From: a virus
Direction: 5' to 3' (one strand)
Length of the DNA: 64,000 nucleotides
Virus record (IMG/VR): IMGVR_UViG_3300032334_000335
Location: 1 to 64,000 of that record
Part shown: positions 13,452-33,476 of the stretch, piece by piece
Numbering within the stretch: the stretch's first letter is position 1
Layout of the letters: each line of letters opens with the position of its first letter
Notes under the pieces: model-generated
Told to the model about the DNA's origin: nothing
The model's input: the letters and a program-made list of their open reading frames with translations, nothing else
Database searches by the model: none
Made by a program: the position numbers and the translations under genes

Positions 13452-13505
13452 TGATCAGCCAGGAAATGATCACATTGGTATTTGTGGGCCGTAAATCACA
13501 AGGAG
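13452..13505 (+). promoter_or_regulatory. Twin-hairpin leader abutting the polymerase SD, candidate translational operator
   Basis: TGATCA-GCCAGGAAA-TGATCA and TTGTGG-GCCGTAAA-TCACAA, then AGGAG. Confidence 0.5.
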
Positions 13506-13511
13506 AAAAAT

Positions 13512-16241: not shown

Positions 16242-16979
16242 ATGAAAGACATTTTACAAGATATCGTATCACATACGCAAAATCTAGGCTTCCTTACTAC
16301 AGTTAAAGTAACAGGCACAGAAGAAAAGACAACCATTAACTCGATGGCGGATGACCGTTCAGTTATTATGGAAGCAGAAACCAGTGCGCCATACGCAGAT
16401 ATGCTAGGTGTATTTGGTATGCCGCAACTTAACAAGTTGAAGTATTTGTTAGACGGTGCTGAATACAAAGACGATGCTAAGATCAGCGTTACCTTTGCAG
16501 AACGCAACGGCGAAACTATTCCAGTTGGCATACACTTTGAAAACAAAGACGGTGACTTTAAAAACGACTATCGTTTTATGAATAGTGAAATCATCAACGA
16601 AAAGATGAAGACTGTCAAGTTCCGTGGTGTTAAGTGGGATGTAGAAGTTGAGCCAACTGTTTCAGCAGTACAGCGTTTCAACTTCCAAGCAGGTGCTAAC
16701 AATGAGCATCCGACATTCCTTGCTAAAACAGACGGCGGTAACTTGAAGTTCATCTTCGGTGATGCTTCAACACACGGTGGCGAGTTTATTTTTGCACAGA
16801 ACGTTGCAGGCAAACTAGATCGCGGTTGGACTTGGCCAGTGTTGCCAATCTTGAGCATTTTAAAGATTGCAGATGTAAACAACACCAAGATGTCGTTGTC
16901 AAATGAAGGTGCTATTCAGATTACTCTTGATAGCGGATTGGCAACTTACAAATATATTATTCCAGCACAAGCTGCCTAA
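16242..16979 (+). CDS. Probable sliding clamp / polymerase processivity factor
   Basis: 245 aa, directly after polB, beta-rich, C-terminal ...YKYIIPA like PCNA/gp45 folds. Confidence 0.6.
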   Translation: MKDILQDIVSHTQNLGFLTTVKVTGTEEKTTINSMADDRSVIMEAETSAPYADMLGVFGMPQLNKLKYLLDGAEYKDDAKISVTFAERNGETIPVGIHFENKDGDFKNDYRFMNSEIINEKMKTVKFRGVKWDVEVEPTVSAVQRFNFQAGANNEHPTFLAKTDGGNLKFIFGDASTHGGEFIFAQNVAGKLDRGWTWPVLPILSILKIADVNNTKMSLSNEGAIQITLDSGLATYKYIIPAQAA

Positions 16980-16981
16980 AT

Positions 16982-17347
16982 ATGATCAAAGGTCTACAAG
17001 GTAATATAGGCATTACAGTCAGTGGTGGCGATACTAGTGTGCCTTATGTTAACAACAATCCTAGTAACCCTATGCAGGGTATGATGCGTATTAATGGCAC
17101 TGACATACAGGTGTTTGATGGCAACTCTTGGTTGAACTTGAGCACCAGCTATGCAACTGTAGGCCTAGATTCCGAAACACAGAATCTGTTGAACTGGGCA
17201 AGGAGTAAACAGAAGCAAGAGATTGACTTACTAGAACTAGCTACAAAAAACGAAGCCGTTCGTATTGCATTAGAAAATGTAAAAAAGGCACAAGATCAAC
17301 TTACTATAACAGCACATTTATCGAGAGACCATGAAACAACCAGTTAA
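16982..17347 (+). CDS. Hypothetical protein
   Basis: 121-aa ORF in operon. Confidence 0.65.
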   Translation: MIKGLQGNIGITVSGGDTSVPYVNNNPSNPMQGMMRINGTDIQVFDGNSWLNLSTSYATVGLDSETQNLLNWARSKQKQEIDLLELATKNEAVRIALENVKKAQDQLTITAHLSRDHETTS

Positions 17348-18941
17348 CTTAACACCATTACAGAAAGACTATGCTGTGTATTTGCCAGCTATCAGTTCTT
17401 TCTATTCAACATATGTTGCCAAGCAACGTCTAGAAGAGTTTGTTCCTAATGATCGCATTCCGCAAGGATTTGATCGTGGCATTGAAGGCATGAACTTCTT
17501 AAATGCTGACGAAGGATACTTTACCTACAAGTATGCTTTGTATTCAGCAGGTCACGCACAACTTGATTTAGAAAAGTCAATGGAACAAGAGTCAATGATC
17601 CAACAACGTGATCGACCTAACACAATGATCTTAGGTGACTCTGGCGGATACCAGATTGGTAAAGGTGTTCTTAAGTTTGACTGGTTGAACTTTGAAGGTC
17701 CAGAAGCCAACAAGACTCGTAAAAAGATTCTCGAATGGTTAGAGTTAACTGCTGATTGGTCAATGATGCTGGACGTGCCGACTTGGGCTTGTGACCATAT
17801 TCATAGTCCAAAGACTGGATTGAAAACATTTGAAGACTGTTTGGAAAAGACACGTTTCAATAACGACTACTTCTTACAGAATCGTCTTGGTCAAACTAAG
17901 TGGCTGAATGTGCTTCAAGGCGGTGACTGGGATACTGCTGAGAAATGGTATCGTGGTGTTGTAGAGTTCAGTGATCCTAAAGGCAAGTACGCTGGCAAGG
18001 AAGCAGAAGGTTGGGCCTTCGGTGGTGCTAATATGTGTAAGATGGATATTACACTCAAGCGTCTAATGACTATGCGTGACGAAGGTATGCTTACAGGTAA
18101 GAACTGGATTCACTTCTTGGGTACAGCACAACTTGACTGGAGTTGCTACCTAACACAGATCCAACGTCAGATCCGTAAACATATTAATCCAGAACTTACT
18201 ATTAGTTTTGACTGTGCAAGTCCGTTTATTGCTACTGCTCACGGTCTTGTCTACACAAACGCACAACATACCAATAAGCGTTGGTCGGTTATTATGGACA
18301 AGGCTCCTGATAACAAAGCACTTTCAGGACGTCATGATATTCCGTTTCCGTTTGAAAGCGAGTTTGCAAGTCGTTTAACCATGGGTGACATCGCATACTA
18401 TAACTACGGTGTTCGTAAGACAGACGAAGAACTCGGCGGAGTTAAGTTTAATCATTTAAATCCAGAACACTATCACGAAGTACCTCGTCTTAATAAGCTA
18501 GGTAAGATTCCAAATAAGACTAGTTGGGATAGTTTTAGTTACGCATTGATGATGGGCCATAATGTTGAATGCCATATCAAAGCAGTTCAACGTGCTCAAC
18601 AGTTAATGGATATCGAATGTGCTAGATTTAAGCCAGATTGGCGCACTTGGGGTCTTGAAGGTAAGAAAGAAATCGAGTTTAGTGACTGGGTTCCACGTAA
18701 GATTCTATACTTTGGTACATTTGTTGAAGAACTGTTTAATACTAAGACCAAATCAGAAGCATTTGATATGATTGAGACTGCCGGACAGTTCTTAAAATCA
18801 CTGGAAGGTGCTCGACTACAAGGTGGCCCTGCTGCTAATACATTTGGTAGTTTATTTGATTTTGACGATGGCAAGAAATCCACTGAGATTGATTTTGCAA
18901 ATCCGGACGATGATGACCTAAATAGTCTTGTAGCTGAATAA
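17331..18941 (+). CDS. dpdA: TGT-fold guanine transglycosylase, DpdA-like (DNA 7-deazaguanine insertion)
   Basis: DSGGYQ, MLD, VLQG, GWAFGG, HFLG and ISFD motifs of the TGT barrel; folE/queE nearby. Confidence 0.8.
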   Translation: MKQPVNLTPLQKDYAVYLPAISSFYSTYVAKQRLEEFVPNDRIPQGFDRGIEGMNFLNADEGYFTYKYALYSAGHAQLDLEKSMEQESMIQQRDRPNTMILGDSGGYQIGKGVLKFDWLNFEGPEANKTRKKILEWLELTADWSMMLDVPTWACDHIHSPKTGLKTFEDCLEKTRFNNDYFLQNRLGQTKWLNVLQGGDWDTAEKWYRGVVEFSDPKGKYAGKEAEGWAFGGANMCKMDITLKRLMTMRDEGMLTGKNWIHFLGTAQLDWSCYLTQIQRQIRKHINPELTISFDCASPFIATAHGLVYTNAQHTNKRWSVIMDKAPDNKALSGRHDIPFPFESEFASRLTMGDIAYYNYGVRKTDEELGGVKFNHLNPEHYHEVPRLNKLGKIPNKTSWDSFSYALMMGHNVECHIKAVQRAQQLMDIECARFKPDWRTWGLEGKKEIEFSDWVPRKILYFGTFVEELFNTKTKSEAFDMIETAGQFLKSLEGARLQGGPAANTFGSLFDFDDGKKSTEIDFANPDDDDLNSLVAE

Positions 18942-18951
18942 GGAGAATGTT

Positions 18952-19137
18952 ATGTATGAGCTTCGAATCAAACATTTGGAAGATGCACACCGTGCTTTGG
19001 ACAAACAAATTGATACTTTGGAAAAAAATGGCTTGTTTGAAGATCTAAAGTTAGAGAAATTGAAGAAAGAAAGGTTGCTCTTAAAGGACAAACTTGCTAT
19101 ACTAAAGCGTAAACAAGAACTCCACACACAGGCGTAA
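18952..19137 (+). CDS. DUF465/YdcH-like coiled-coil protein
   Basis: HRALDKQI...LKKERLLLKDKL pattern. Confidence 0.65.
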   Translation: MYELRIKHLEDAHRALDKQIDTLEKNGLFEDLKLEKLKKERLLLKDKLAILKRKQELHTQA

Positions 19138-19138
19138 C

Positions 19139-19342
19139 ATGGCATCATTCACCCTTAATCGAACACAAGTTGAAAAACTTGCTAAGATGGCGGCACACTT
19201 CAAGGAAGTAGATTGGTTCGTCCTTGAGGAAACACATACAAGCGGCATTGGCCCTACGGTCACTGTCAAGTTCAATCTTTTCAACGATGATGACAAAGAC
19301 ATTGACACCACCGTTGATATCACCGATGTGAGTACCTGGTAA
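19139..19342 (+). CDS. Hypothetical protein
   Basis: 67 aa ending DITDVSTW. Confidence 0.6.
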   Translation: MASFTLNRTQVEKLAKMAAHFKEVDWFVLEETHTSGIGPTVTVKFNLFNDDDKDIDTTVDITDVSTW

Positions 19343-19806
19343 TGAAACAAGAACTAGACGCATTGCTATGCGAGAAGTATCCTAAGATGATGGTTAACCG
19401 CAACAAGAACATGCAGGAAACTTGTATGTGTTGGGGCTTTGAATGCGGTGATGGTTGGTTTAATATTCTTGATCAACTGATGGGCAATATTCAACATCAT
19501 ATTGATTGGAAGAATCGAAAAGAAGAAGTTGTTCCACAAGTGACCCTAGATCAAGTTAAAGAAAAGTTTGGCACACTGCGTTTCTACTACCAAGGCGGTG
19601 ATGACTACATCAGCGGTCTTGTTAGCATGGCAGAATCAATGTCGGGTATCACCTGCGAAGGCTGTGGTGCTCAAGCTAAGACAAACTGGCCTAAAGCTGA
19701 GAATGGCGGCATCGGTGGCTGGGTTCGTACCATATGTGCTCCTTGCGAAACTAAGCGTGAAGAAGAACGTGCCAAATATATGAAATCACAAGGATTCGAA
19801 GAATGA
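19342..19806 (+). CDS. Hypothetical phage protein with Zn-ribbon
   Basis: ECGDGW, QVKEKFGTLRFY, CEGCG...CAPC. Confidence 0.7.
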   Translation: MKQELDALLCEKYPKMMVNRNKNMQETCMCWGFECGDGWFNILDQLMGNIQHHIDWKNRKEEVVPQVTLDQVKEKFGTLRFYYQGGDDYISGLVSMAESMSGITCEGCGAQAKTNWPKAENGGIGGWVRTICAPCETKREEERAKYMKSQGFEE

Positions 19807-19991
19807 AGTGCGACCTATGCGGTAAGGAGTATGACTCCGAGTGTGATTATCGGCAGGGTCGCTGCCCTCATCACCCATCAATGGTAGATAGTATTTTAGC
19901 TGATCCGTATAAAGCAAGATACTATAATCTTTTACAATCAATCAAAAACTTTTTCACAAAGAAAGACTGCGACTGCGGTCACAATCACTAA
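19803..19991 (+). CDS. Small Cys-rich hypothetical protein
   Basis: CDLC..C..CPH; coupled ORF. Confidence 0.55.
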   Translation: MKCDLCGKEYDSECDYRQGRCPHHPSMVDSILADPYKARYYNLLQSIKNFFTKKDCDCGHNH

Positions 19992-20548
19992 TGAAACGAA
20001 ACTATAACACAGGCGTTGAAGAAGCTGTAACATTCTTCACAGGTATAGAGATTGAAAAGACTCCTGCTTACGGAATGAAAACTCTATTTGTAGTAGGTGT
20101 TCACGATCCTTATACAATTTTAGATATTGTAAAAGAATCTAGATCATATAACGACGAATCTAAACATATTACACACATTTACTTTGGTGCCAATCAAAGT
20201 TTTAAGACTAACGGTGTCAATGATATTGAAACTTGGCGTCCTTGGGAAAATATGATCTATGTCTGCCTAGACAGCGAGTATGATCTTTGGTGTACACTTG
20301 ACTTCGATGTTCGTGAAGTAGAAGGCTTATTGGAAAGTGGCTTAACTGAGAAGCGTCAGTTTATTCCGCAGATTTCGGTTAAACTGCCCTATTTACAACA
20401 GCTGGGATATAATGCTACAATAAAGCTAGACGACAAAGATTTTAAAGCGACAAATCACGGAGTGTGGTGCCATAACCTCCATGACCTACTAGATAGAAAT
20501 AAGTTTACTAGTTGGGATCAATATGGTAAAGATGAGATTATCAAATGA
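19991..20548 (+). CDS. Hypothetical alpha/beta protein in the deazaguanine region
   Basis: 185 aa; TLFVVG, HIYFGANQSF, TIKLDD, NHGVWC. Confidence 0.7.
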   Translation: MKRNYNTGVEEAVTFFTGIEIEKTPAYGMKTLFVVGVHDPYTILDIVKESRSYNDESKHITHIYFGANQSFKTNGVNDIETWRPWENMIYVCLDSEYDLWCTLDFDVREVEGLLESGLTEKRQFIPQISVKLPYLQQLGYNATIKLDDKDFKATNHGVWCHNLHDLLDRNKFTSWDQYGKDEIIK

Positions 20549-20922
20549 GTGGTGGATACGCAGTAGCATCAACAGCAAAGCAGAGACGCATTCCTAGGAT
20601 CTCTAGTAATCGCGGTCCTCGGCCAAGACAATACATAGAAAAAAACACAATGAAACTAACATTCAAACAAAGACTACGCAACTGGTTGCTTAATGACGGC
20701 GACGATTTCGAACAAATGTCTGAAGACTGCGAAGGTCCAGAACTACATTCTCAAGGATTTCGCTTACAAGTTTACGGTGCCAGTGGCGGCACTATTGTAG
20801 AAACTACCAAGTACGACCGTAAGAGTGATGAGAATCGTCACAGTCTACACGTAGTCACTGAGGATAAAGACCTTGGTGAAGAACTAGCTAAAATCATCAC
20901 TATGGAACAGTTACGCTCATGA
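20545..20922 (+). CDS. Hypothetical protein
   Basis: 125-aa coupled ORF. Confidence 0.65.
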   Translation: MSGGYAVASTAKQRRIPRISSNRGPRPRQYIEKNTMKLTFKQRLRNWLLNDGDDFEQMSEDCEGPELHSQGFRLQVYGASGGTIVETTKYDRKSDENRHSLHVVTEDKDLGEELAKIITMEQLRS

Positions 20923-21314
20923 TTATCAAACAAGACATCCGACCACTTAAAATGATATGGGTCACTTTCCGCAAGGAAGGCATTCATAAATATCCTGCGG
21001 CACTAACAGATCCAAATCTAGCTACAGGAGACGAATATGATGTATCGTTTTTGGGTTATCCTCATCGCCACATCTTTCATTTCCGGGTGTGGATCAATGT
21101 GCTCCATAATGACAGGGACATCGAGTTCATCCAGTTCAAACGATGGCTCGAGTCGCTGTATAATGGTCAAGGTTCCGTTCTGAGCCTAGACTATAAAAGT
21201 TGCGAAATGATGTCAGATGATCTACATGACATCATTAGCAAGAAGTATCCAGGTCGTGAGATTTGGATTGAGGTCTCCGAAGACGGAGAAAATGGTTCAT
21301 TTATTAAGTACTAA
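20919..21314 (+). CDS. T-fold QueD-like protein of DpdL type
   Basis: EGIH, LGYPHRHIF (LxxxHRHxF instead of QueD CxxxHGH), SCEM, VSEDGENG. Confidence 0.7.
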   Translation: MIIKQDIRPLKMIWVTFRKEGIHKYPAALTDPNLATGDEYDVSFLGYPHRHIFHFRVWINVLHNDRDIEFIQFKRWLESLYNGQGSVLSLDYKSCEMMSDDLHDIISKKYPGREIWIEVSEDGENGSFIKY

Positions 21315-21332
21315 CTAGAAGAAGAGGCTGCA

Positions 21333-21599
21333 ATGGCTAAGAACTACAAGGATTATTCCTATTTTGAAAACCGCCCAGATGTTGTCAAGGTCTTTGATGA
21401 TCTTGATGCATACTTGGATTACTGCAGAATTGAACTCTGCGATTTTAACCCAGCAGATCTTTATCGCAAAGATTCTGCAAACTATCAGGCTTACCTACAA
21501 AGTAAGCGACCACGCCGGCCTTGGGTAGATCGAGGCGAACGTAAACCTTACCAAGGTAAAAATCCAAGGCCATATAACAATGACCGTTTTTCTCGTTGA
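21333..21599 (+). CDS. Hypothetical protein
   Basis: 88 aa; GAGG SD; basic C-terminus. Confidence 0.65.
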   Translation: MAKNYKDYSYFENRPDVVKVFDDLDAYLDYCRIELCDFNPADLYRKDSANYQAYLQSKRPRRPWVDRGERKPYQGKNPRPYNNDRFSR

Positions 21600-22677
21600 T
21601 CTAGAAGCAGTCGAGACAAGGTACACGGGACAATGGAAGTCCCATGTACCAGCTCTTTTACGAAAGGTGTCTAACGATGTTCAAGTTATCTCTGGCCCTA
21701 CGGATATTCCTACAGCCACTACTCCTGGTGCTTTCCTTAATTTTGGTGGCACCAATATATACAAGTCTGCTCAAGTTGAGCAAATCGGCAGGCTATTTTG
21801 CAACGGAGCCGTTCATCCCGGCGATCACTTTATTTTTACTGATGCTTGGCATCCTGGTATCATAAACTTAAAGTACATGAGTGAACTGTTGCAGATTCCT
21901 GTAACAACACACGGCTTATGGCATGCTGGTAGTTATGATCCTCAAGACTTCCTAGGTCGACTCGTTGGCAATAAGCCTTGGGTCAGACACGCTGAGAAGA
22001 GTTTCTTCCATGCGTTTGATCATAACTACTTTGCTACAAACTTTCACATTGAAATGTTTATTAAAAATCTACTCAATGATGAGTTGTTTGAAAATCCTTG
22101 GATGGAAGATCATCTTGCAGAAGCACTGAGAGGCGAATGTCCTAATATAGTGCGTACTGGTTGGCCAATGGAGTATATGGAAGATACCTTAATCATGTAC
22201 AAGAACATGAAGAAGCGTGATCTTATTTTATTTCCGCATCGCATCGCACCAGAGAAGCAGGTTGAAATCTTCCGTGATCTAAAAGAACACTTACCGCAAT
22301 ATGAGTTTGTTGTTTGTCAAGATCAACAACTAACAAAGAATGAATATCATAACTTGTTAGGTGAGGCTAAACTAGTGTTTAGTGCTAACTTGCAAGAAAC
22401 ATTGGGCATTAGTTGGTATGAAGGTGCGGTAGTTGATGCTATTCCTATGGTTCCGGATAGACTTAGTTACAGCGAAATGGCACATGATACATTTAAGTAT
22501 CCAAGTGAGTGGACGGAATCGTTTGAAGCATATACTGTACATCGTAAAGAAATCTGTATGAAGATTATACAGTATATAGAAAACTACGTAAAGTATTTGC
22601 CAAGCCTAAATAAACAGGTATATGATTTAAAAGAAAACTTTTTTAGTTGCAATAACCTGCTAGAGAAGTTAAAATAA
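21580..22677 (+). CDS. GT-B fold (GT4-like) glycosyltransferase
   Basis: FPHRIAPEKQ and SANLQETLGISWYEG (ExxGxxxxE) donor-binding motifs. Confidence 0.8.
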   Translation: MTVFLVDLEAVETRYTGQWKSHVPALLRKVSNDVQVISGPTDIPTATTPGAFLNFGGTNIYKSAQVEQIGRLFCNGAVHPGDHFIFTDAWHPGIINLKYMSELLQIPVTTHGLWHAGSYDPQDFLGRLVGNKPWVRHAEKSFFHAFDHNYFATNFHIEMFIKNLLNDELFENPWMEDHLAEALRGECPNIVRTGWPMEYMEDTLIMYKNMKKRDLILFPHRIAPEKQVEIFRDLKEHLPQYEFVVCQDQQLTKNEYHNLLGEAKLVFSANLQETLGISWYEGAVVDAIPMVPDRLSYSEMAHDTFKYPSEWTESFEAYTVHRKEICMKIIQYIENYVKYLPSLNKQVYDLKENFFSCNNLLEKLK

Positions 22678-22716
22678 ACAATATGTCATCCACGACATTA
22701 ACTCGGAGAATATTAA

Positions 22717-23541
22717 TTGACAAAAGATTTTAAACCAGATCCAATAATGAACACACCTGACAACAGGGAGTTTGTTAAGGATGAATATCAGCCTTTGGGG
22801 AAAGAAGTATATGTTAAGGCTGCAGACATGATGTCTGATAAAGGTTACCAAGAAGCTAATCTAGCAGATGCTATTCGCTTCAAACTGAAACGTGATAAGA
22901 AACGTTTCTGGGCTGGTGACAATATCAGTGATTATATCAGTGAAGAAGATAAAGACGTTCTAATCAAAGAAGCAACTGAAGCATTTGAAAAAGTACTCGA
23001 TACGTTGCTTATTGATCGTGAGACTGATCCTAACAGCAAAGGCACTGCCAAGCGCCTTGCTAAAATGTACTTTAACGAAATAATGGCAGGTAGATATGAT
23101 CCAGCACCAGACGCTACAGCGTTTCCAAATGATTCGCAGGACCGTTATGAGGGTATGCTCGTTGTTCGCAGTGAGCTTCGGAGTATGTGTAGCCATCATC
23201 ACCAACCCGTTACTGGCGTTGCTTATATTGGTATTTTGGCTGCTAACAAACTTATTGGACTATCCAAGTACACACGTATTGCCCAATGGTGTGCCCGTCG
23301 AGGTACTCTCCAGGAGGAGCTTTGTAATGATATTGCTAGGGAAATACAAAAAGCCACTGACTCAGAGAATGTAGCAGTCTATATCCAAGCGACACATGGA
23401 TGCTGTGAGAATCGTGGTATTATGGCACATAGTAGCTTAACACAGACTACAGTACTCAAAGGTGCGTTCAAAGACGACGGTAATACTAAGAAAGAGTTTT
23501 TTGATAATATTAAACTACAACAAGAGTTTGCGCCACGTTAA
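22717..23541 (+). CDS. folE: GTP cyclohydrolase I with N-terminal extension, TTG start
   Basis: SMCSHHHQP, GLSKYTRI, LQE, HGCCENRG. Confidence 0.95.
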   Translation: MTKDFKPDPIMNTPDNREFVKDEYQPLGKEVYVKAADMMSDKGYQEANLADAIRFKLKRDKKRFWAGDNISDYISEEDKDVLIKEATEAFEKVLDTLLIDRETDPNSKGTAKRLAKMYFNEIMAGRYDPAPDATAFPNDSQDRYEGMLVVRSELRSMCSHHHQPVTGVAYIGILAANKLIGLSKYTRIAQWCARRGTLQEELCNDIAREIQKATDSENVAVYIQATHGCCENRGIMAHSSLTQTTVLKGAFKDDGNTKKEFFDNIKLQQEFAPR

Positions 23542-23551
23542 GGAGAACATA

Positions 23552-23785
23552 ATGAAAACGTTTGATACATTTGAAGAAGTAGTCGGAATGATGCATTGCA
23601 TGAAAAGGCCGATTGTGGTTCATGCTAAGAAGATAGACGAGGAATTCCGTGTCAATACGCTAGAAGGCAACTATAAACAGGGAAAGCCTGGTGATTATCT
23701 TATGCGTGGTATTGATGGCGAGTTATATATTTGCGACGGACCTATATTTGAAAAAACTTATGATTTCTTAGAAGGAAAACAATGA
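23552..23785 (+). CDS. PGDYG-like small protein
   Basis: TLEG...GKPGDYLMRGIDGELY; start after AGGAG. Confidence 0.65.
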   Translation: MKTFDTFEEVVGMMHCMKRPIVVHAKKIDEEFRVNTLEGNYKQGKPGDYLMRGIDGELYICDGPIFEKTYDFLEGKQ

Positions 23786-24285
23786 GAGTCTATCGCATAA
23801 CACCACTCGAAAAGAAAAGCGTTGTATACCATGTAGAAATGTTCCGTGAAAATACGGATGGCTCTATCAGTTGGGTCAACATTGATGAGACATATCGATG
23901 GGGTCAAGGATTCATCGAAGAAGACATGGATTGTAACTTGCCGTATAAAGACAGTGATCTTGCCTACTGTGATCCTAATGCAGGTTGGGGCGCAGAACTA
24001 GACGACAGTTGTGCTTGCTGGTTTGAATACAGTGACGACTTTACCGATGAGGATAAAGAAGCGTTTGAAACAGCTTATCACGAAGGGGGTGCGGCTTGGT
24101 TGTTTGACGGTGAACACGATTGGCAAGAAGAACATTCTGCTATTCATGTACTAGCACCTTTCCAAGTTGATTTATGTGAAGCCGATGGCACAGTTATACA
24201 AGAAAACATTGAACTCAAAGATAGGCCTAACCCTAGTACAAGTTGGCCTTTTAGCGCAGCATTTCCAAAACCTGAGGAGGAATAA
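23782..24285 (+). CDS. Acidic hypothetical protein
   Basis: 167-aa D/E-rich ORF. Confidence 0.65.
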   Translation: MRVYRITPLEKKSVVYHVEMFRENTDGSISWVNIDETYRWGQGFIEEDMDCNLPYKDSDLAYCDPNAGWGAELDDSCACWFEYSDDFTDEDKEAFETAYHEGGAAWLFDGEHDWQEEHSAIHVLAPFQVDLCEADGTVIQENIELKDRPNPSTSWPFSAAFPKPEEE

Positions 24286-24503
24286 TGGAAACAGCCAAGG
24301 ATCTAACTGATCATTTGATATTCCGAGCAAAGAATATGCAGGAGTTTATTGTGGAAAGAGATTGGGATCTAATCCCTGCCGGTGTTGTTAAGTTTGATAT
24401 ACAGCACACACAAGGCGAACCTGCTCGTATATTTGTACATGCAATGACACAAGAAGAAGCAGAACGTCAAGTTGACGATTGGTTTGGAGAAGGTGTAGAA
24501 TGA
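24285..24503 (+). CDS. Hypothetical protein
   Basis: 72 aa; GAGGAGG SD. Confidence 0.6.
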   Translation: METAKDLTDHLIFRAKNMQEFIVERDWDLIPAGVVKFDIQHTQGEPARIFVHAMTQEEAERQVDDWFGEGVE

Positions 24504-24910
24504 TTAAGCCCTTACGTGACGATTTAATGGTACAACAACAAGTGGAAGATTCTTGGCAGCATTTTGTTGGCGTTATCATGCTGAACCAAACCGGACGTAA
24601 AGCAGTAAAGACCACACTTCCTGAGTTTCTATATTGGTTTCCGATGCCGCAGATACTGATAGATGCCGATCCAGATTTTGTCAAAACTATTATCAAACCA
24701 CTAGGAATGGTAAATGTTCGTTACCAGCGTTTGGTAAGAATGAGCCAAGACTACTTGACTTGGGACGGAAATGATGCTACAATGTTATATGGCATCGGAA
24801 AATATGGTTCCGATTCATATGAAATCTTTTATAAGCACAACTACACAGTTGAGCCCACTGACAAAGAACTAAAAAGATATCTAGAACAAGAGGTTTTTAA
24901 TGTTGCTTAA
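24500..24910 (+). CDS. HhH-GPD DNA glycosylase, MBD4-like
   Basis: W..F..IMLNQT, KPLG, LYGIGKYGSDSY.IF and P.D..L..Y match the MBD4 catalytic-domain layout. Confidence 0.8.
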   Translation: MIKPLRDDLMVQQQVEDSWQHFVGVIMLNQTGRKAVKTTLPEFLYWFPMPQILIDADPDFVKTIIKPLGMVNVRYQRLVRMSQDYLTWDGNDATMLYGIGKYGSDSYEIFYKHNYTVEPTDKELKRYLEQEVFNVA

Positions 24911-25382
24911 ACTATTGGACAAGTTAGGTCGTAAGCGTATTATTATGGATCGTGTTGATAACGAACCATATCTAGAACGCTATTATTTGTTCCTTAAAGA
25001 TCGCAATCGTTTTCCATTTAATATTTTTCTACATAAATTTTTAAAAGGCGATCCAGATGATGTGCATGATCATCCATGGCCCTATGCCACATTGATTTTG
25101 AAAGGTGGATATTATGAATGGATTCCGCAGTTTAATGCAGATGGTACAAAAAATTGTGAAATACGTAAATGGCGTGGACCCGGTCACTTTCGTACTTGTA
25201 GTCCTAACTCTTATCATCGTATTGAGCTTAAGCCTGGCGTGACTGCCTGGACATTGTTTATGCCCGGTCCTCATAAACGTGATTGGGGTTTCCTGGTCAA
25301 TGATAACTGGATTCAAAACGAACAATATATGAAAACAAGGAAAGAAGAAGCTTATGAAAAAGCACACAGTATCGTGGCATGA
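24900..25382 (+). CDS. Cupin-fold metalloprotein
   Basis: HDHPW...ILKGGYYE...HRIEL...WTLF. Confidence 0.7.
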   Translation: MLLKLLDKLGRKRIIMDRVDNEPYLERYYLFLKDRNRFPFNIFLHKFLKGDPDDVHDHPWPYATLILKGGYYEWIPQFNADGTKNCEIRKWRGPGHFRTCSPNSYHRIELKPGVTAWTLFMPGPHKRDWGFLVNDNWIQNEQYMKTRKEEAYEKAHSIVA

Positions 25383-25896
25383 TTTTCAAGGATTAATATC
25401 AAAGATTTGTAGAGACATCTCATTAAGCGATTGGAGACCAGACTATGTGGTAGGTATTACCCGTGGTGGTCTCCTTCCTGCAGTTATGATCAGTCATTAC
25501 TTTGATATTCCATGTCACACATTAAGTGTTCGCCTCCGTGACGGAGAAGAAGGTGCTGATACTGAAAGCAATCTTTGGATGGCAGAAGACGCATTTGGCC
25601 ATCCTATTTACGATCCTATGGCATCAGGCAGTGGTCGTAAAAATATTCTTGTTATTGATGACATCAACGACAGCGGTGCAACTATTAACTGGATCATGAA
25701 TGATTGGCCTAGCGGATGTTTTCCAGACGACCCATCATGGGAAGAAGTATGGAATAACAATGTTAGATTTGCAGTGTTGTTTGACAATCTAGACAGCAGA
25801 TGCAAAGTTGATATGGATTATGTTGGCACTGAAGTAAACAAAGCAGAAAACGATATTTGGATTGATTTTCCATTTGAAGATTGGTGGACAAAATGA
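25354..25896 (+). CDS. Type I purine phosphoribosyltransferase (Gpt-like)
   Basis: VVGITRGG, ILVIDDINDSGAT PRPP loop, WIDFPFE. Confidence 0.9.
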   Translation: MKKHTVSWHDFQGLISKICRDISLSDWRPDYVVGITRGGLLPAVMISHYFDIPCHTLSVRLRDGEEGADTESNLWMAEDAFGHPIYDPMASGSGRKNILVIDDINDSGATINWIMNDWPSGCFPDDPSWEEVWNNNVRFAVLFDNLDSRCKVDMDYVGTEVNKAENDIWIDFPFEDWWTK

Positions 25897-26132
25897 GTAC
25901 CATTACAAGGCACAGCAATACCTGTAAAGTAACACAAGCATCTAGCAACAAAACTGTCGATGCTGAAGTTATGTCTTTTAACGAAGGCCGTAACTTAACT
26001 GTTGTTATGAATAAATCAGTTAAACTGATGATGTCATGGAACGGACGTATGTATGAAGGCAGAATGGCAGGTATGGATTTTATCAGCGAAGGTCCTGCTG
26101 TAAGTAAGACACAAACAAGTGCAAGAGGTTAA
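25893..26132 (+). CDS. Hypothetical protein
   Basis: ATGA-coupled ORF beginning MSTITRH. Confidence 0.6.
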   Translation: MSTITRHSNTCKVTQASSNKTVDAEVMSFNEGRNLTVVMNKSVKLMMSWNGRMYEGRMAGMDFISEGPAVSKTQTSARG

Positions 26133-26133
26133 T

Positions 26134-26508
26134 ATGACGGACTTAGATGAAGCTAAACAATCAGGTGTTGCTCCGTGGGACAATGCCGTTGAAAATATGG
26201 AAGATTTTCATGTTCAAGTATTCCGAGACAAATATCCTGTAACGGAAGGTCATCTATTGTTTGTACCTAAATACAACACCGATGCGGTCATCCTTGAATG
26301 TTTTGAGTTTGCTTTAGAAGAAGGTCGACAGATGGTTGCTGCTGGTGAGTGTGACGGGTTTAATATCGGACTTAATGTAGGGCTGTCATCAGGGCAAACT
26401 GTTATGTATCCACATGTTCATCTTATTCCAAGACGTACAGGAGATATGGAAGATCCTCGAGGCGGAGTACGTCATGTTATTCCAGAAAAAGGTAACTATA
26501 AAAAATGA
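26134..26508 (+). CDS. HIT family nucleotide hydrolase
   Basis: YPVTEGHLL, GQTVMYPHVHLIPRR histidine-triad region. Confidence 0.9.
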   Translation: MTDLDEAKQSGVAPWDNAVENMEDFHVQVFRDKYPVTEGHLLFVPKYNTDAVILECFEFALEEGRQMVAAGECDGFNIGLNVGLSSGQTVMYPHVHLIPRRTGDMEDPRGGVRHVIPEKGNYKK

Positions 26509-26651
26509 AAATGTTTAAAAAAGTCAGTGCTATTTTTATTTCAGCCAGTGCATTAACCTTAGCAGTGTTACATTGGGGTACCCCGGAGAGCATGGCATGG
26601 GTAGTTGCGTTAGCAGGCTGGGTCCCACATTGTTTTAATGAAGGAGATTGA
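26505..26651 (+). CDS. 48-aa membrane protein absent from the ORF track
   Basis: MKMFKKVSAIFISASALTLAVLHWG...FNEGD*; ATGA-coupled and fills the gap. Confidence 0.55.
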   Translation: MKMFKKVSAIFISASALTLAVLHWGTPESMAWVVALAGWVPHCFNEGD

Positions 26652-26652
26652 T

Positions 26653-26880
26653 ATGCAAGTACGAGTAACAGAAGATGATAAAGAGTTTGGTAAGTGTGGT
26701 TGTGGTCGTAGCCCAACAGGTAAGTGTATTGGTTGGCATGGTCTAGAAGAAGGTGAGTTCCGCGAGAAACTGGCTGAATGGGAAATGGAAGACTATAAGC
26801 GCAGAGCGCAAGCGATGTGGAATGATAGTTGTACCAGCGTAAGAGCCCCTGGCGATTCTGAGGGTGGAGACATTGACTGA
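26653..26880 (+). CDS. CDGSH-like Fe-S/Zn-binding small protein
   Basis: CGCGRSPTGKCIGWH resembles C-x-C-xx-S-xxx-P-x-C-D-G-S-H. Confidence 0.6.
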   Translation: MQVRVTEDDKEFGKCGCGRSPTGKCIGWHGLEEGEFREKLAEWEMEDYKRRAQAMWNDSCTSVRAPGDSEGGDID

Positions 26881-27067
26881 GATCGTTGTCAAATGGGATA
26901 ATCAAAATGTTCCTTGGTGGAACGAAACTTGTGCTCTAGTATTAGAACATTTCGGACTACCTGGTGACAGATTTGTTTATACACCGCACGAAGACTATAT
27001 GACATTTAAGTTCTTTAACGAACACGATGGGCTTATGGCTAAAATACTATTGAGTGATAGGATATGA
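26864..27067 (+). CDS. Hypothetical protein
   Basis: 67 aa; WNETCA..FGLPG. Confidence 0.6.
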   Translation: METLTEIVVKWDNQNVPWWNETCALVLEHFGLPGDRFVYTPHEDYMTFKFFNEHDGLMAKILLSDRI

Positions 27068-27258
27068 GAGACACTATTATAACTATAGTCTTAGTAATAG
27101 TTTTAGCAATGATCATGTTGTTTTCAGACTTCACTGGAAGCAAGGTCGTTGTATATGACTGTGGAATGGCAGAATGGCATCCAGACATTCCACCAAGAGT
27201 CAAAGAAGAATGTCGTAGGTTAAAGTTAGAAGAATTAAAAAGCAGAGACACAATATGA
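27064..27258 (+). CDS. Small membrane-anchored protein
   Basis: N-terminal TM segment; YDC..HPD.P..C. Confidence 0.6.
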   Translation: MRDTIITIVLVIVLAMIMLFSDFTGSKVVVYDCGMAEWHPDIPPRVKEECRRLKLEELKSRDTI

Positions 27259-27437
27259 ACAGCTGGACATTAACTGTAGAAGAAGATCCCGAAACTGGTG
27301 ATGCTATCCTTACATTTCCTCCCGATCTATTAGAAAAATCAGGGTGGGTAGAAGGCGATACCCTAGAATGGATTGACCTAAATAATGGTAGTTGGCAACT
27401 CAAAAAAGTTGACAAAACTACTGAACAGAGTGTATAA
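27255..27437 (+). CDS. AbrB/MazE-like DNA-binding protein
   Basis: ILTFPPDLLEKSGWVEGDTLEW swapped-hairpin signature. Confidence 0.7.
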   Translation: MNSWTLTVEEDPETGDAILTFPPDLLEKSGWVEGDTLEWIDLNNGSWQLKKVDKTTEQSV

Positions 27438-27438
27438 T
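27409..27438 (+). promoter_or_regulatory. Sigma70-type promoter, probably leaderless queE transcript
   Basis: TTGACA(27409-14)-18 nt-TATAAT(27433-38), ATG at 27444. Confidence 0.7.
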
Positions 27439-27443
27439 ATACT

Positions 27444-28307
27444 ATGAGCAAAATTAAAATCGCAGAGCTGTTTTACAGCATTCAAGGTGAAGGACGCTAT
27501 ATGGGTGTTCCTTCTGTTTTCTTACGTACATTTGGTTGCAACTTTAAATGTGCTGGCTTTGGTATGCTACGTGGTACATTAAGCGGTGAAGCAGATGTGC
27601 TAGCAGAGAAACAAGAAAAATATAACAAGTGGCCTACGTATAATGAACTTCCATTAGTAAGCACAGGTTGTGACAGCTATGCTAGCTGGCATCCTAGCTT
27701 TAAAGAACTTAGCCCAATGCTTACTAGTGATGCCATTGCAGATCGTATTTGTGAGATATTGCCACATAATGAATGGCAAGACGAGCATCTGGTTATCACT
27801 GGCGGTGAGCCTTTGCTGGGTTGGCAACGTGCTTACCCAGACTTGCTGGATCATCCTAAGATGGCAGGACTAAAAGAGATCACATTTGAAACAAATGGTA
27901 CTCAAAAGCTAACAGAAGAGTTTAAAGAATATCTAGTAAAGTGGCAAATGCCTAACATGGATTTTGCAAGAGAAGTTACATTTTCAGTAAGTGCTAAACT
28001 TCCATGTAGTGGCGAAAAGTGGGAGGAAGCTATTCTGCCAGGAGTTGTTTGTGAATATGAAGACTTTGGTACAGCCTATTTGAAGTTTGTCATTGCCACT
28101 GAACAAGATTTTGCAGATGCAGAATGTGCTATTGCCGCTTATCGTACAGCAGGATTTAAAGGTCACATTTATCTCATGCCAGTGGGCGGTGTTGAAAGTG
28201 TTTATGCACTAAACAATCGCACAGTGGCAGACTTAGCTATGAAGAACGGTTTAAGATATAGTGATAGATTGCAAGTGCCGTTATTTAAAAATGAGTGGGG
28301 AACTTAA
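27444..28307 (+). CDS. queE: 7-carboxy-7-deazaguanine synthase (radical SAM)
   Basis: ELFYSIQGEG, FLRTFGCN, ITGGEP, ETNGT, RLQV; cluster motif Cx3Cx39C. Confidence 0.9.
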   Translation: MSKIKIAELFYSIQGEGRYMGVPSVFLRTFGCNFKCAGFGMLRGTLSGEADVLAEKQEKYNKWPTYNELPLVSTGCDSYASWHPSFKELSPMLTSDAIADRICEILPHNEWQDEHLVITGGEPLLGWQRAYPDLLDHPKMAGLKEITFETNGTQKLTEEFKEYLVKWQMPNMDFAREVTFSVSAKLPCSGEKWEEAILPGVVCEYEDFGTAYLKFVIATEQDFADAECAIAAYRTAGFKGHIYLMPVGGVESVYALNNRTVADLAMKNGLRYSDRLQVPLFKNEWGT

Positions 28308-28747
28308 TGAAGAAGATTATTGAAAAACTTTTTGGTATTGATAAAGTTCGAGCTGAAGCAGAGCGTTCAGTAGCAATAGCAGAAGAAGCAGCCAAGGCAG
28401 CGAAAGATGCTACCGCGGCAGCAGAGAGAGCCAAAGAAGCCGAAGAACTGGCAAAACTCAGTGCAAAAGATAGAGCAACCAAACTAAAAGAACCTTGGGT
28501 AGGTGTACTAAACACACATATCAACAAAGATAATATCCGCAATGGCTTCTTTGAGCTTGACTGGAACGACCATTTTGTGTTAAAATTAAAGCAAGAAGGA
28601 TACGGATTTGATGGTGATTTAGATGAAGAAATCGTAGACCGTTGGTTCCGTGAACTTTGTGCTAACGTGGTAGTTGACGGTGACTTTGGCGGTGCCGTTA
28701 ACACTGGCGTTATTGATATCAACTCAGTTAAAAAGAACAACAAATGA
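28307..28747 (+). CDS. Hypothetical protein
   Basis: TAATG-coupled; coiled N-terminus; GFFELDWN. Confidence 0.7.
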   Translation: MKKIIEKLFGIDKVRAEAERSVAIAEEAAKAAKDATAAAERAKEAEELAKLSAKDRATKLKEPWVGVLNTHINKDNIRNGFFELDWNDHFVLKLKQEGYGFDGDLDEEIVDRWFRELCANVVVDGDFGGAVNTGVIDINSVKKNNK

Positions 28748-29730
28748 ACTATATTTTAGTAGATACAGCAAATACCTTTTTCCGTGCTCGGCACGTTATC
28801 AACGGTGACGCTGATATCAAACTAGGAATGGCTTTTCATATTACACTTAATAGTGTAAAGAAAGCATGGCAAGACTTTAACGGCAGTCACGTTATCTTCT
28901 GTTTAGAAGGTCGTAGCTGGCGCAAGGACTTTTATGCTCCTTACAAAGCGCAACGTGCAGAAGCTCGTGCTGCTCATACAGAACGTGAAGCAGAAGAAGA
29001 AAAAGTCTTTTGGGAAGCCTTTGACACATTCAAAGAGTTTATTACAGAAAAGACTAACTGTACAGTTATGCAGAATCCACGCTTAGAAGCTGACGATCTT
29101 ATTGCTGGCTGGATTCAGAGTCATCCAAACGATAATCATATTATCATTTCGACAGACACAGATTTTGTACAACTTATTGCACCTAACGTCAAACAGTACA
29201 ACGGTGTTATGGAAACAACTATTACACACGAAGGTATCTTTGATGCAAAAGGCAAAAGAGTCATTGATAAGAAAACGCAAGAGCCCAAAGCAATCCCAGA
29301 TCCAGAATGGCTCTTGTTCGAAAAGTGTATGCGTGGTGATACCAGTGATAATGTCTTCTCAGCGTATCCGGGTGTGCGTACTAAAGGCACAAGCAAAAAA
29401 GTGGGTCTTACTGAAGCGTTCGAAGATCGTAAAAGCCGCGGATATGCGTGGAACAATCTCATGTTACAGAGATGGGTTGACCATAATGGCGTCGAACACA
29501 GAGTGTTAGAAGATTACGAACGCAACCGTCGACTTATTGATTTGAGTCATCAGCCAGAAGATATTAAAACGATCATTGCCGAGACCATTGCGACAGCAAC
29601 AGGTGCTAATAAAAATATCAGCCAAGTTGGCATTCGACTTATTAAGTTCTGTAACTTATACGATCTTAAGAAGATTGCCGACCAGGCACAGGCATATGCC
29701 GAACCATTAAATGCGAGGTACACCGTATGA
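28744..29730 (+). CDS. rnh: RNase H / 5'-3' flap exonuclease (T4 rnh-like)
   Basis: ILVD..N, YKAQR, EADD, STDTDF.QL, GDTSDN. Confidence 0.9.
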   Translation: MNYILVDTANTFFRARHVINGDADIKLGMAFHITLNSVKKAWQDFNGSHVIFCLEGRSWRKDFYAPYKAQRAEARAAHTEREAEEEKVFWEAFDTFKEFITEKTNCTVMQNPRLEADDLIAGWIQSHPNDNHIIISTDTDFVQLIAPNVKQYNGVMETTITHEGIFDAKGKRVIDKKTQEPKAIPDPEWLLFEKCMRGDTSDNVFSAYPGVRTKGTSKKVGLTEAFEDRKSRGYAWNNLMLQRWVDHNGVEHRVLEDYERNRRLIDLSHQPEDIKTIIAETIATATGANKNISQVGIRLIKFCNLYDLKKIADQAQAYAEPLNARYTV

Positions 29731-31692: not shown

Positions 31693-32358
31693 ATGAGAAG
31701 CCTAAAACACGTAGGACGTATGCAGAAGAATGATGCCAAAGTATTGGTAGCATTCCGCACACTGCCGGGTGAATCAAATACAGCATTGGTTATTCCAGTT
31801 TCGCAGCTCAATGACGAATATCATAACGATATCATGAAACTGGTCGAAACTGACCAAGCACAAGAAGTGTTTGAGTTCGGTGAAATCTTGTTTACTAGAT
31901 CTTTCACTGACGGTCGCCCAATGTTAAGAGCATTACAAGCAGACGGAATTATGCAGAAGGTTCCAACTGACTCTGTGTTGATGACTCCAACTCCTAATGA
32001 CACTATCCAGCTTCATCAGTTGAATACATTAATCGCCGAACAACGTAACTGTGCTGTTGACGATCTATGTACTTTTGTTTCTGGTGCTCCAAAACAAAAC
32101 TCATCTGAAGTTGAAGATATTGTACAGGTAAAAGATCTAGGTAGAGATATTGGTGAACCAAAACCTCTAAACGAATCGAAGCCTGCTCCTCTTAAGGCAG
32201 CAGAAAATTCAGTTCTTTCGGATACAGACATTGCTAAATCATATCGCAGTCAAGCTGATGCTATGTATAAAGAAGCAGCAAGACTACGTAAGCAAGCAGA
32301 TGAATTAGATCCGCCAAAGAAAAAAGCAACTAAATCTACAGAAGAACTAAGTGCCTAA
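31693..32358 (+). CDS. Hypothetical protein
   Basis: Start MRSLKHVG after AGGAGG. Confidence 0.7.
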   Translation: MRSLKHVGRMQKNDAKVLVAFRTLPGESNTALVIPVSQLNDEYHNDIMKLVETDQAQEVFEFGEILFTRSFTDGRPMLRALQADGIMQKVPTDSVLMTPTPNDTIQLHQLNTLIAEQRNCAVDDLCTFVSGAPKQNSSEVEDIVQVKDLGRDIGEPKPLNESKPAPLKAAENSVLSDTDIAKSYRSQADAMYKEAARLRKQADELDPPKKKATKSTEELSA

Positions 32359-32656
32359 TCCGTTATTTAAACCGCCGCGGCATTTAGTAAAAGAGTGGCC
32401 TGAAGTCTTTGAAGATCTATACATGAATACTATGCCGGTAGCATATCTAGTAAACATACATCTAGAGTTTGCTAACGGCAGAGTATGGCAGATCGATGTC
32501 AAAGAACAGTTGAAAGAACATGATGCAGATGAGATTGCCGCAAGATTATTAGATACCCTGCATGAATTTAAAGAAGATATAACTAAGATGGATTTCAAGA
32601 TCGATGTAGACAAACTCAAGACAGATATAAAGAGTTCGTCTAAAAAGATTTTTTAA
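32351..32656 (+). CDS. Hypothetical protein
   Basis: 101 aa; last gene of the long + strand run. Confidence 0.65.
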   Translation: MPNPLFKPPRHLVKEWPEVFEDLYMNTMPVAYLVNIHLEFANGRVWQIDVKEQLKEHDADEIAARLLDTLHEFKEDITKMDFKIDVDKLKTDIKSSSKKIF

Positions 32657-33435: not shown

Positions 33436-33440
33436 CGTGA

Positions 33441-33462
33441 AATATTTATATGGTTAAATATT
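33441..33462. promoter_or_regulatory. Back-to-back late promoters
   Basis: AATATTTA-tatggt-TAAATATT gives TAAATA on both strands between divergent genes. Confidence 0.55.
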
Positions 33463-33476
33463 CCAAAGGATAGTTA

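Follow-up and report, generated by a model that had tools for sequence, protein, structure and literature searches.

The window analysed here, a stretch of 64,000 nucleotides of viral DNA from the IMG/VR record IMGVR_UViG_3300032334_000335, carries behind a DNA polymerase gene a cluster that includes a predicted guanine transglycosylase, a DpdL-family protein, a glycosyltransferase (GT), and two enzymes of 7-deazaguanine synthesis, FolE and QueE. The composition and conservation of the cluster suggested a phage system that swaps guanine in DNA for a 7-deazaguanine derivative, which would most likely then be decorated with a sugar; we give this reading an even chance of being correct. The window represents the first part of an 86.5-kb record with a CheckV completeness estimate of ~23%, and the absence of a gene from the record therefore says little about the phage. 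A megablast search of the region against 50,697 phage records returned zero matches. At the protein level, the nearest cultured relatives were PA5oct, a Pseudomonas jumbo phage, and phages akin to it: 11 of the 13 phage records matched by the transglycosylase belonged to the PA5oct group (42.9% identity), and the others were Sinorhizobium phage Phosso and Vibrio phage 2.275.O. Close uncultured relatives of the window phage measured up to 282–332 kb. Among the relatives used for comparison, the environmental genome G001 was 93% complete, G004 was complete and terminally repeated, and PA5oct and Phosso were complete genomes. The main open reading frames (ORFs) of the cluster and the replication genes preceding it are as follows:

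13482..16181, plus strand: family-B DNA polymerase gene polB, given as context (PF00136, 2.1e-35; PF03104, 5.7e-19); its protein ends in ...NTFNKLFDFE
16242..16979, plus strand: clamp-like 245-aa protein, a putative sliding clamp named from its position, its size, and the label of the Phosso homolog
17331..18941, plus strand: divergent, DpdA-like guanine transglycosylase of 536 aa with a predicted tRNA-guanine transglycosylase (TGT) fold; D103, D148, D294; tail TFGSLFDF
19991..20548, plus strand: conserved protein of 185 aa, usually encoded just upstream of DpdL (69/75 loci)
20919..21314, plus strand: DpdL-family protein of 131 aa, QueD-like, a proposed decarboxylase of 7-carboxy-7-deazaguanine (CDG), with the motif LGYPHRHIF and homology to the DpdL of phage phiST
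21580..22677, plus strand: GT4 (Glycos_transf_1) glycosyltransferase of 365 aa with an invariant EX7E motif (E273, E281)
22717..23541, plus strand: FolE, GTP cyclohydrolase I (PF01227, 3.4e-40 over residues 88-265; phrog_2197), with an N-terminal extension of ~87 aa
25354..25896, plus strand: phosphoribosyltransferase (PRTase) of the xanthine/guanine type (PF00156, 2.6e-11; NF006613 XPRT, 3e-11, below cut-off; 54/75 loci)
27444..28307, plus strand: QueE-like radical-SAM CDG synthase (phrog_2076, 1.4e-49, full length)

An earlier reading made from the DNA letters and the ORF translations (hereafter, the sequence-only reading) had described a 7-deazaguanine DNA-modification module at this site. 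The genes it named are all found in the ORF list on the plus strand and where it had placed them, and the existence of the module was borne out by the TGT fold, DpdL, FolE, and QueE evidence presented below.

By its predicted structure, the 536-aa protein is a TGT-fold transglycosylase. Searches of PDB sequences with the single sequence or with a profile returned nothing, or a TGT at E ~1, and a search at the fold level was therefore needed; no Pfam-TGT match was obtained with PF01702 anywhere in the 86.5-kb record. The AlphaFold model (predicted local distance difference test, pLDDT, 90.4; predicted template modelling score, pTM, 0.90) gave 187 Foldseek matches in the PDB at E<=0.001, and among the rows listed all were TGTs, the best of them with E ~1e-7 and a probability of 1.00. 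In VIA-align, the model was superposed on the archaeosine TGT 1iq8 with Z 17.7 (301 aligned residues, root-mean-square deviation 5.0), on bacterial TGT and QTRT2 with Z 16.2 each, on the DNA preQ0 insertase DpdA (7UI4) with Z 15.2 (302 aligned residues, deviation 4.4), and on Cap10 with Z 14.2; other and generic TIM barrels scored Z <=11.6. An alignment of 69 diverse members of the family contained seven invariant columns, D103 and D294 among them, and D148 was conserved in at least 90% of the sequences. Alignment with the E. coli TGT by hhalign paired DSGGYQ with DSGGFQ, LDVPT with FDECT, LQGG with IQGS, GWAFGG with GYAVGG, and SFDCASP with MFDCVMP. The three aspartates thus fall at the acid/base, base-recognition, and nucleophile positions of TGT (motifs DSGGFQ, FDE, and FDC), that is, at the aspartates that define the TGT/DpdA active site as general acid/base, base-recognition residue, and nucleophile (PMC10164549).

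The family is not small. A full-library HMMER search with the limit E<=0.001 retrieved the representatives of 865 clusters formed at 50% identity, and scores were obtained for more than 7,500 clusters of another collection, formed at 90% identity. The transglycosylase is therefore placed in a very large zinc-less clade that is missed by every family library scanned. In hhalign the family stood nearer to the transglycosylase of phage ACP17 (96.3%, E 1.6e-9) than to DpdA3 of phiST (CGPG_00065; 81%, E 1.2e-5 over 84 columns). The exchange of guanine in DNA for 7-deazaguanine by this enzyme we infer from its linkage with FolE, QueE, and DpdL, and from the modified guanine of PA5oct, which is described below.

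The position and the tail of the transglycosylase suggested a connection with replication. In the model, pLDDT drops below 50 at residues 497-518, a segment that holds TFGSLFDF (window 18820-18860) and resembles the C-terminus of the window's polymerase, TFNKLFDFE (window 16140-16181); the T4 polymerase gp43 ends in SLDFLFG. Such polymerase C-termini bind the sliding clamp. The pattern [FY]xx[LM]F occurred in 18 of 69 family tails; 500 shuffles gave 2.0 on average and never more than 7. A clamp-like gene was present in 73 of 75 loci (the sampling is described below); it lies upstream of the transglycosylase gene, adjacent to it or separated by one small ORF, and in the window one small ORF lies between. 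Taken together, the LF-type tail and the fixed place behind polB and the clamp-like gene suggest that the transglycosylase is tethered to a clamp and probably acts on DNA at the replication fork or in its wake.

The 131-aa protein is assigned to DpdL on sequence. Its motif LGYPHRHIF corresponds to the signature LxxxHRHxF, by which DpdL is told from QueD with CxxxHGH (Cui et al., PMC10516641), and this signature is kept in the commonest motif variants among 99 DpdL homologs. The protein aligned with the phiST DpdL over 107 columns (hhalign 99.1%, E 7.7e-19; tblastn E 5e-8), whereas no relationship to the QueD of ACP17 was detected (hhalign 8.9%). In Pfam, PHROGs, NCBIfam, and PADLOC, its sole match was phrog_17812, a PHROG of unknown function (1.1e-32). 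The profile retrieved no PTPS chain from the PDB, and the PF01242 search did not pick up the protein; the nearest Atlas cluster to which a family is assigned was PTPS (on 20% of members, score 0.94), which is treated here as a lead only. The decarboxylation of CDG to 7-deazaguanine by DpdL is a published proposal (PMC10516641).

The QueE-like protein matched five NCBIfam QueE models at 1e-14 to 4e-11, all below the equivalog cut-offs, mostly in two stretches (approximately residues 3-37 and 91-285), and its match to the Pfam radical-SAM family was weak. In its cluster motif the CNFKC cysteine pair precedes the next cysteine (GCDS) by ~39 residues, a spacing that points to an unusual insertion within the loop of the radical-SAM cluster. 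A perfect sigma-70 consensus, TTGACA-18-TATAAT (12 of 12 positions), occupies 27409..27438 on the plus strand and stops 6 bases ahead of the start codon of queE; over the region as a whole, promoter-like sites numbered 48 against 44.9 expected by chance and are not in excess.

The 365-aa protein is a plausible, catalytically competent GT4-type glycosyltransferase, judging from its relatives. PF00534 was matched by 27 of 45 aligned relatives (best 5.5e-9), and the homologs of phages BUDD and BCSR5 scored 45.7 and 42 bits, respectively, against a cut-off of 26.4. The EX7E pair is the hallmark of GT4. It is represented by E273 and E281, which are invariant in the 45 sequences, and the ACP17-like set has an equivalent pair, likewise free of variation. 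The GT profile also matched PDB entry 8xsg, a 'putative glycosyltransferase' (E 7.6e-7), and the scoring of this family covered more than 4,600 clusters (90% identity). Since the transglycosylase and GT families are both very large, the modification, if it exists, would be common in nature. A second GT subtype, 400-419 aa long, is found in distant lineages (PF00534, 26.9 bits). In a locus-wide search, 15 of 22 distant loci also encoded an NAD-dependent epimerase/dehydratase of nucleoside diphosphate (NDP)-sugars (PF01370, 2.4e-54), usually directly downstream of the second subtype; in L129 and L137 the match was weak and lay upstream. In two such loci (L099, 13181-15436; L142, 15012-17158), the second GT subtype followed by a gene of the epimerase/4,6-dehydratase family stands between DpdL and FolE.

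Two candidate relationships of the GT were rejected. No similarity to the T4 beta-glucosyltransferase was detected (hhalign probability 0.1%). Enzymes of the ThyA family are the usual source of hydroxymethyl-pyrimidine acceptors, and a pyrimidine acceptor of this kind was rejected for G001 (93% complete) and ACP17, in which no ThyA-family candidate was found; in PA5oct and G004, a gene that matches ThyA strongly adjoins FolE or QueD. The lack of a ThyA-family enzyme in G001 and ACP17 makes deazaguanine the most economical acceptor.

Linkage of these genes was assessed in two directions. Transglycosylase-centred loci were drawn from the best 80 of 586 close and the best 80 of 585 distant confirmed matches; one locus was common to both scans, which left 159 distinct loci, every one with a transglycosylase match. 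The counts over 75 refer to the viral loci among them with at least 6 kb downstream, searched with the window proteins. The clamp-like gene and DpdL were each present in 73 of these, the 185-aa gene in 69, FolE in 64, and the PRTase in 54; QueE was likewise found in 54, a count limited by the 10-kb flank. The GT was detected in 58 loci by tblastn and in 73 by the GT-family profile. The reverse test started from ACP17-like GTs (best 80 of 124 loci). A GT was present in 79 loci, 77 of which had DpdL, and in the two misses the GT lay at the contig edge. Flanks of at least 3 kb to either side were available for 51 GT-centred loci. In these, DpdL was always present (51/51), usually as the adjacent gene, a TGT-fold gene was found in 49 (44 of the window type and 5 ACP17/BUDD-like), QueE in 34, QueD in 26, FolE in 25, and the PRTase in none. 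Thus, the linkage of the GT with DpdL and the transglycosylase is almost obligate, as the sequence-only reading had supposed when it counted the GT as a part of the module.

The same association was observed in cultured phages. In the T4-like phage ACP17 the order is QueD, FolE, an ORF marked x, DpdA, GT, DpdL, QueE, so that the GT gene sits between those of DpdA and DpdL; in BUDD it is FolE ... GT, DpdA, DpdL, QueE. BCSR5 likewise has DpdL, GT, and transglycosylase set near one another, and in X1 the GT is next to or near DpdL. PA5oct shows the order polB, clamp-like gene, x, DpdA, GT, DpdL ... PRTase-like gene, QueE. In Phosso, DpdL, GT, FolE, and QueE lie beside polB and the clamp, and the transglycosylase is 170 kb off. 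Vibrio phage 2.275.O (L085, 330-345 kb of the record) encodes a 596-aa transglycosylase homolog followed by an amidoligase-like protein (PF12224, 21.9 bits, cut-off 22) and then, in order, by QueF, a YhhQ-like transporter, QueC, a protein like class-II glutamine amidotransferases, FolE, and QueD; this phage combines the same transglycosylase type with a different decoration route.

The closest alternative is that the cluster is a plain published system for 7-deaza-2'-deoxyguanosine (dDG), in which 7-deazaguanine is the final base, as in Cellulophaga phage phiST, and the GT acts elsewhere, for example on protein, or not on DNA. The gene set does fit the pattern of DpdL phages, namely DpdA, FolE, QueD, and QueE with no QueC (PMC10516641), and phiST shares both the DpdL family and a PRTase homolog. 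However, such a system leaves unexplained why DpdL, GT, and transglycosylase travel together (73/75; 51/51) and why GTs and NDP-sugar enzymes are swapped inside the cluster. In addition, heterologous expression of ACP17 DpdA and DpdL yielded no dDG, and the authors suggested that additional enzymes may be required (PMC10516641). We regard the plain system as rather unlikely.

These results also define what is new. Because DpdL without QueC is the published dDG pattern (PMC10516641), the core of the cluster does not lie outside the described set of deazaguanine systems, and the DpdL-type core is already known. The proposal of the sequence-only reading that the product goes beyond the described bases consequently fails for the core, but the linkage of the GT supports it well. 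The dedicated GT with its lineage-specific sugar enzymes, the unrecognised zinc-less transglycosylase clade, and the conserved 185-aa partner are new. Our literature search, which covered main-text excerpts, found no glycosylated deazaguanine in phage DNA and no GT in DpdL clusters, and the main text of PMC10516641 is free of the words 'glycosyl' and 'sugar'. Transglycosylases of the PA5oct and ACP17 types may already be included in Supplementary Data S1 of that paper, which covers phages and DpdA subfamilies.

The second alternative concerns the base itself. The sequence-only reading had seen no QueC in the window and concluded that the local pathway ends with CDG or a derivative of it. No QueC and no QueD match was indeed found in the whole 86.5-kb record, and the complete PA5oct and Phosso genomes gave no QueC match; the conclusion about the pathway is nevertheless unsafe, since the contig is fragmentary, QueD is locally missing as well, and relatives carry QueC-like genes. 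QueD is present in complete PA5oct and Phosso. The first base of the window corresponds to ~50.5 kb of G001, whose QueD lies at 26.7 kb, and in a further environmental relative, G002, QueD lies 39 kb beyond the end that corresponds to that of the window. Given that in relatives QueD falls 23-39 kb past the contig end, the QueD of the window phage most likely lies just off the fragment. A divergent QueC-like PP-loop gene was found in all three near-complete environmental relatives (G001, G002, and G004). The products of G001 and G004, of 235 and 202 aa, share 24% identity; the QueC-like proteins have an SGGxDS motif and a C-terminal cysteine cluster and scored 23.7 bits with PF06508 (cut-off 22). 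Thus, 'no QueC' is true for the window, PA5oct, and Phosso, but need not hold for the window's phage.

Such an enzyme might carry the pathway past CDG by activating its carboxylate, giving a base like 7-amido-7-deazaguanine or preQ0, or an amide conjugate, with DpdL and the GT employed otherwise. The QueC-like genes with their SGGxDS motif, cysteine cluster, and PF06508 score speak for this possibility, as do the amide-bond-forming QueC homologs of the roseomycin clusters (10.64898/2026.04.15.718813). However, complete PA5oct and Phosso have the same module and no QueC match, a distance of more than 100 kb separates the QueC-like gene of G001 and that of G004 from the cluster, and no homolog was found in cultured phages. 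The G001 gene adjoins a twitch-domain radical-SAM gene and an Asp/Asn hydroxylase-like gene. We consider this route improbable. The QueC-like genes are located at 240.8-244.0 kb of G001 (L088) and 37.4-40.6 kb of G004 (L180). The radical-SAM/SPASM neighbour in G001 matched NF033640 at 1.5e-96, and a paralog of it (28.7% identity) is encoded in the window at 39497-40510 on the minus strand. The G001 QueC-like gene itself has no counterpart in the window, the corresponding site being outside the contig.

The PRTase raises a third possibility, in which it makes a deazaguanine nucleotide that the polymerase incorporates, and the TGT-fold enzyme is auxiliary or acts on tRNA. An XPRT-like PRTase is present in 54 of 75 loci, and its homologs among cultured phages concentrate in deazaguanine phages, some of which are reported to have complete replacement of guanine (PMC10516641): 21 of 25 records were PA5oct-like, phiST-like, a Flavobacterium immuto phage, or a DpdL-bearing cyanophage. 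This distribution ties the PRTase to the set, as the sequence-only reading had proposed. On the other hand, all 51 GT-centred loci, which retain DpdL and the transglycosylase, are devoid of it, the transglycosylase keeps all catalytic aspartates and is the most conserved member, no tRNA gene was found in the window, and Cui et al. argue that every known case is post-replicative (PMC10516641). Nucleotide-level incorporation thus appears very improbable, and a salvage role, the recycling of guanine, is plausible for the PRTase. Finally, shared ancestry alone, by which the genes would be mere neighbours in one conserved replication block of related jumbo phages with no joint function, is scarcely credible: most loci do come from one broad phage group with a conserved polB-clamp-transglycosylase order, and the 185-aa gene of PA5oct lies apart from the cluster, but the trio recurs with another transglycosylase type and gene order on unrelated backbones (T4-like ACP17, BUDD/X1, and BCSR5), and Phosso keeps DpdL and GT paired alongside FolE and QueE although its transglycosylase is elsewhere.

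Replacement of guanine by a sugar-decorated 7-deazaguanine remains our preferred reading, and it would proceed as follows. FolE, QueD, and QueE would convert GTP to CDG; FolE and QueE are encoded in the window, and QueD is off-contig in relatives. The DpdL-family protein would convert CDG to the base used, the published proposal being decarboxylation to 7-deazaguanine. The 536-aa TGT-fold enzyme would then swap guanine in DNA for the deazaguanine by the double-displacement chemistry of TGT and DpdA, and the released guanine could plausibly be returned to GMP by the XPRT-like PRTase. The GT4 would transfer a sugar from an NDP-sugar onto the deazaguanine, which at that point could already be part of the DNA or be a base still to be inserted. 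Candidate attachment sites are C7, after or together with decarboxylation, N2, or the CDG carboxylate. Extended to a very large group of big phages that is abundant in the environment and has PA5oct, Phosso, ACP17, and BUDD among its cultured members, the proposal would be that guanine is replaced by glycosylated 7-deazaguanine through a clamp-tethered zinc-less transglycosylase acting at the fork and a DpdL-paired GT4, possibly with decarboxylative C-glycosylation at C7, and that the sugar varies among lineages with an NDP-sugar-tailoring enzyme of their own. It would be a hypermodification of a DNA purine for which no description exists so far; we hold this wider version to be possible but somewhat doubtful.

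Several observations weigh against this reading. The 536-aa protein matched zero families in Pfam, PHROGs, NCBIfam, and PADLOC, including any TGT or DpdA hidden Markov model. Its sequence is devoid of the CXCX2C...H zinc motif, and no invariant or near-invariant cysteine column was found in the 69 members; the structural zinc site is kept in TGT and in the studied bacterial DpdA family (PMC10164549). The window's own GT gave no match in Pfam, PHROGs, NCBIfam, or PADLOC. The clamp-like protein belongs to phrog_12062, of unknown function, its PDB profile search was empty, and hhalign with T4 gp45 gave 2%. 7-Deazaguanine has no obvious hydroxyl acceptor. phiST, whose DNA contains plain dDG, has DpdL and a PRTase and no GT, and DpdL therefore does not require glycosylation. 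Two of the 75 loci (L160 and L163) have neither GT nor DpdL nor the 185-aa gene. The PRTase, found in 0 of 51 GT-centred loci, is not a core component. The base made could also be altered by the QueC-like gene that relatives carry outside the cluster. Lastly, the sampled loci are the best 80 per scan and mutually related, and the counts are thus not independent events.

If the preferred reading is true, it would have several consequences. The sugar-bearing DNA bases described in the literature covered are pyrimidines, and the described deazaguanines of DNA carry small groups at C7; a glycosylated deazaguanine would thus extend DNA modification to a new chemical class. The modified guanine of PA5oct, a therapeutic-candidate phage, would be accounted for, as would the sensing of this phage by END nucleases and the failed reconstitution of dDG by DpdA and DpdL alone. 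Since the zinc-less clade is unrecognised by libraries, current screens for deazaguanine phages miss such genomes.

In addition to the genes considered above, the following features were found in and around the cluster:

19342-19806: cysteine-rich ORF of 154 aa between the transglycosylase and the 185-aa gene; no family match; present in close relatives (28/177 loci)
21333..21599, plus strand: ORF of 88 aa that precedes and overlaps the GT start; kept in closer clades
24479..24910, plus strand: small HhH-GPD protein of 143 aa, EndoIII/MutY-like (PF00730, 6.1e-07; 25/75 loci)
24900..25382, plus strand: cupin-like protein (phrog_4786, 2.7e-38; 42/75 loci)
26119..26508, plus strand: accessory HIT-domain protein (PF01230, 1.2e-08; 36/75 loci)
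27409..27438, plus strand: the sigma-70 consensus mentioned above, just upstream of queE
28744..29730, plus strand: 5'-3' exonuclease/RNase H (PF02739, 1.7e-19), which closes the conserved replication block on its downstream side; synteny extends to PA5oct and Phosso

Co-occurrence separated the neighbours into two groups. The sequence-only reading had counted the 185-aa gene and the cupin in the set; the gene-neighbourhood comparison across related jumbo phages showed that the GT, DpdL, and the 185-aa gene are kept, the last of these being co-conserved within the phage group, whereas the cupin, HIT, and HhH-GPD genes are clade-specific and were rejected as core parts. The 185-aa protein gave no match in Pfam, PHROGs, or NCBIfam. 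Its model is of high quality (pLDDT 91.7) and has no Foldseek match at E<=0.001, and the PDB profile search was empty; the fold candidates tried in VIA-align, STAS/SpoIIAA-like (Z 7.1) and a partial QueE barrel (Z 5.8), were within the common range and were rejected. In PA5oct, the 185-aa gene is 26 kb from the cluster. The HhH-GPD gene is part of the cluster in no clade but the close one, and Phosso has an unrelated 'glycosylase' between clamp and DpdL. The host END nucleases that target PA5oct sense through an inactive EndoIII domain, and it may be speculated that the small HhH-GPD protein is linked to them, for example as a decoy or in repair.

Other observations concern the surroundings of the cluster. 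The polB of PA5oct is annotated as two pieces around a Hef-like homing endonuclease (L001, 216.6-221.8 kb), and that of the window is a single ORF of 899 aa. At approximately 32000-46000 of the window, the GC content falls from ~0.40 to ~0.35 and the GC skew changes sign. The window proteins gave no matches in PADLOC.

Several known systems resemble the cluster, among them that of PA5oct. Several restriction enzymes fail to cut the DNA of this phage, and the pattern of resistance implies modified guanine, the base not being named; END nucleases, which sense hypermodified bases, restrict the phage. In the portion of the preprint drawn on here, PA5oct QueE and PTPS are named, and neither the transglycosylase nor the GT is (PMC12191111). 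PA5oct shares with the window a block made up of polB, the clamp-like gene, the transglycosylase (43% identity), GT, DpdL, the PRTase-like gene, QueE, and the exonuclease, as well as the absence of QueC. It differs in that the GT directly follows the transglycosylase, and FolE and two QueD paralogs are 55 kb away.

The phiST-type dDG pathway consists of DpdA3, DpdL, and FolE/QueD/QueE with no QueC (Cui, Hutinet et al., Nucleic Acids Research 2023, PMC10516641). In common with the window, phiST has the DpdL family, the CDG-making genes, a TGT-fold transglycosylase, and a PRTase homolog. However, it has no GT, and its DpdA3, of 259 aa, is weakly related to the window enzyme, which is 536 aa long, is encoded within the replication block, and has a polB-like tail. 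The bacterial DpdA 7UI4 and the TGTs share with the window enzyme the predicted TIM-barrel TGT fold and the three aligned active-site aspartates, whereas their zinc site and the PF01702 match are missing in it. In addition, the window enzyme has Gln at the position of the TGT-type QGG, whereas bacterial DpdA is described with His181 (PMC10164549).

Glycosylation provides three further parallels. As would be the case here, in the glucosylation of 5-hydroxymethylcytosine in T4 a base is first changed, and a phage GT-B enzyme then adds to it a sugar that depends on the lineage; however, a pyrimidine is modified there, hydroxymethylation takes place at the nucleotide level, and the window GT has no detectable similarity to the T4 beta-GT. 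In vertebrate tRNA, queuosine is mannosylated or galactosylated by QTMAN and QTGAL (10.64898/2026.06.28.735034). The succession of TGT-family insertion of a 7-deazaguanine and its glycosylation in the nucleic acid would be the same, whereas the substrate is RNA and the sugar is attached to the cyclopentenediol of queuine, which the window pathway cannot make. The synthesis of huimycin belongs to bacterial secondary metabolism, unlike the phage system, and involves a free base rather than DNA. In this pathway, HuiG uses UDP-GlcNAc (uridine diphosphate N-acetylglucosamine) to glycosylate a 7-deazapurine base derived from preQ0 (10.64898/2026.04.15.718813), and its activity indicates that such bases can serve as GT acceptors.

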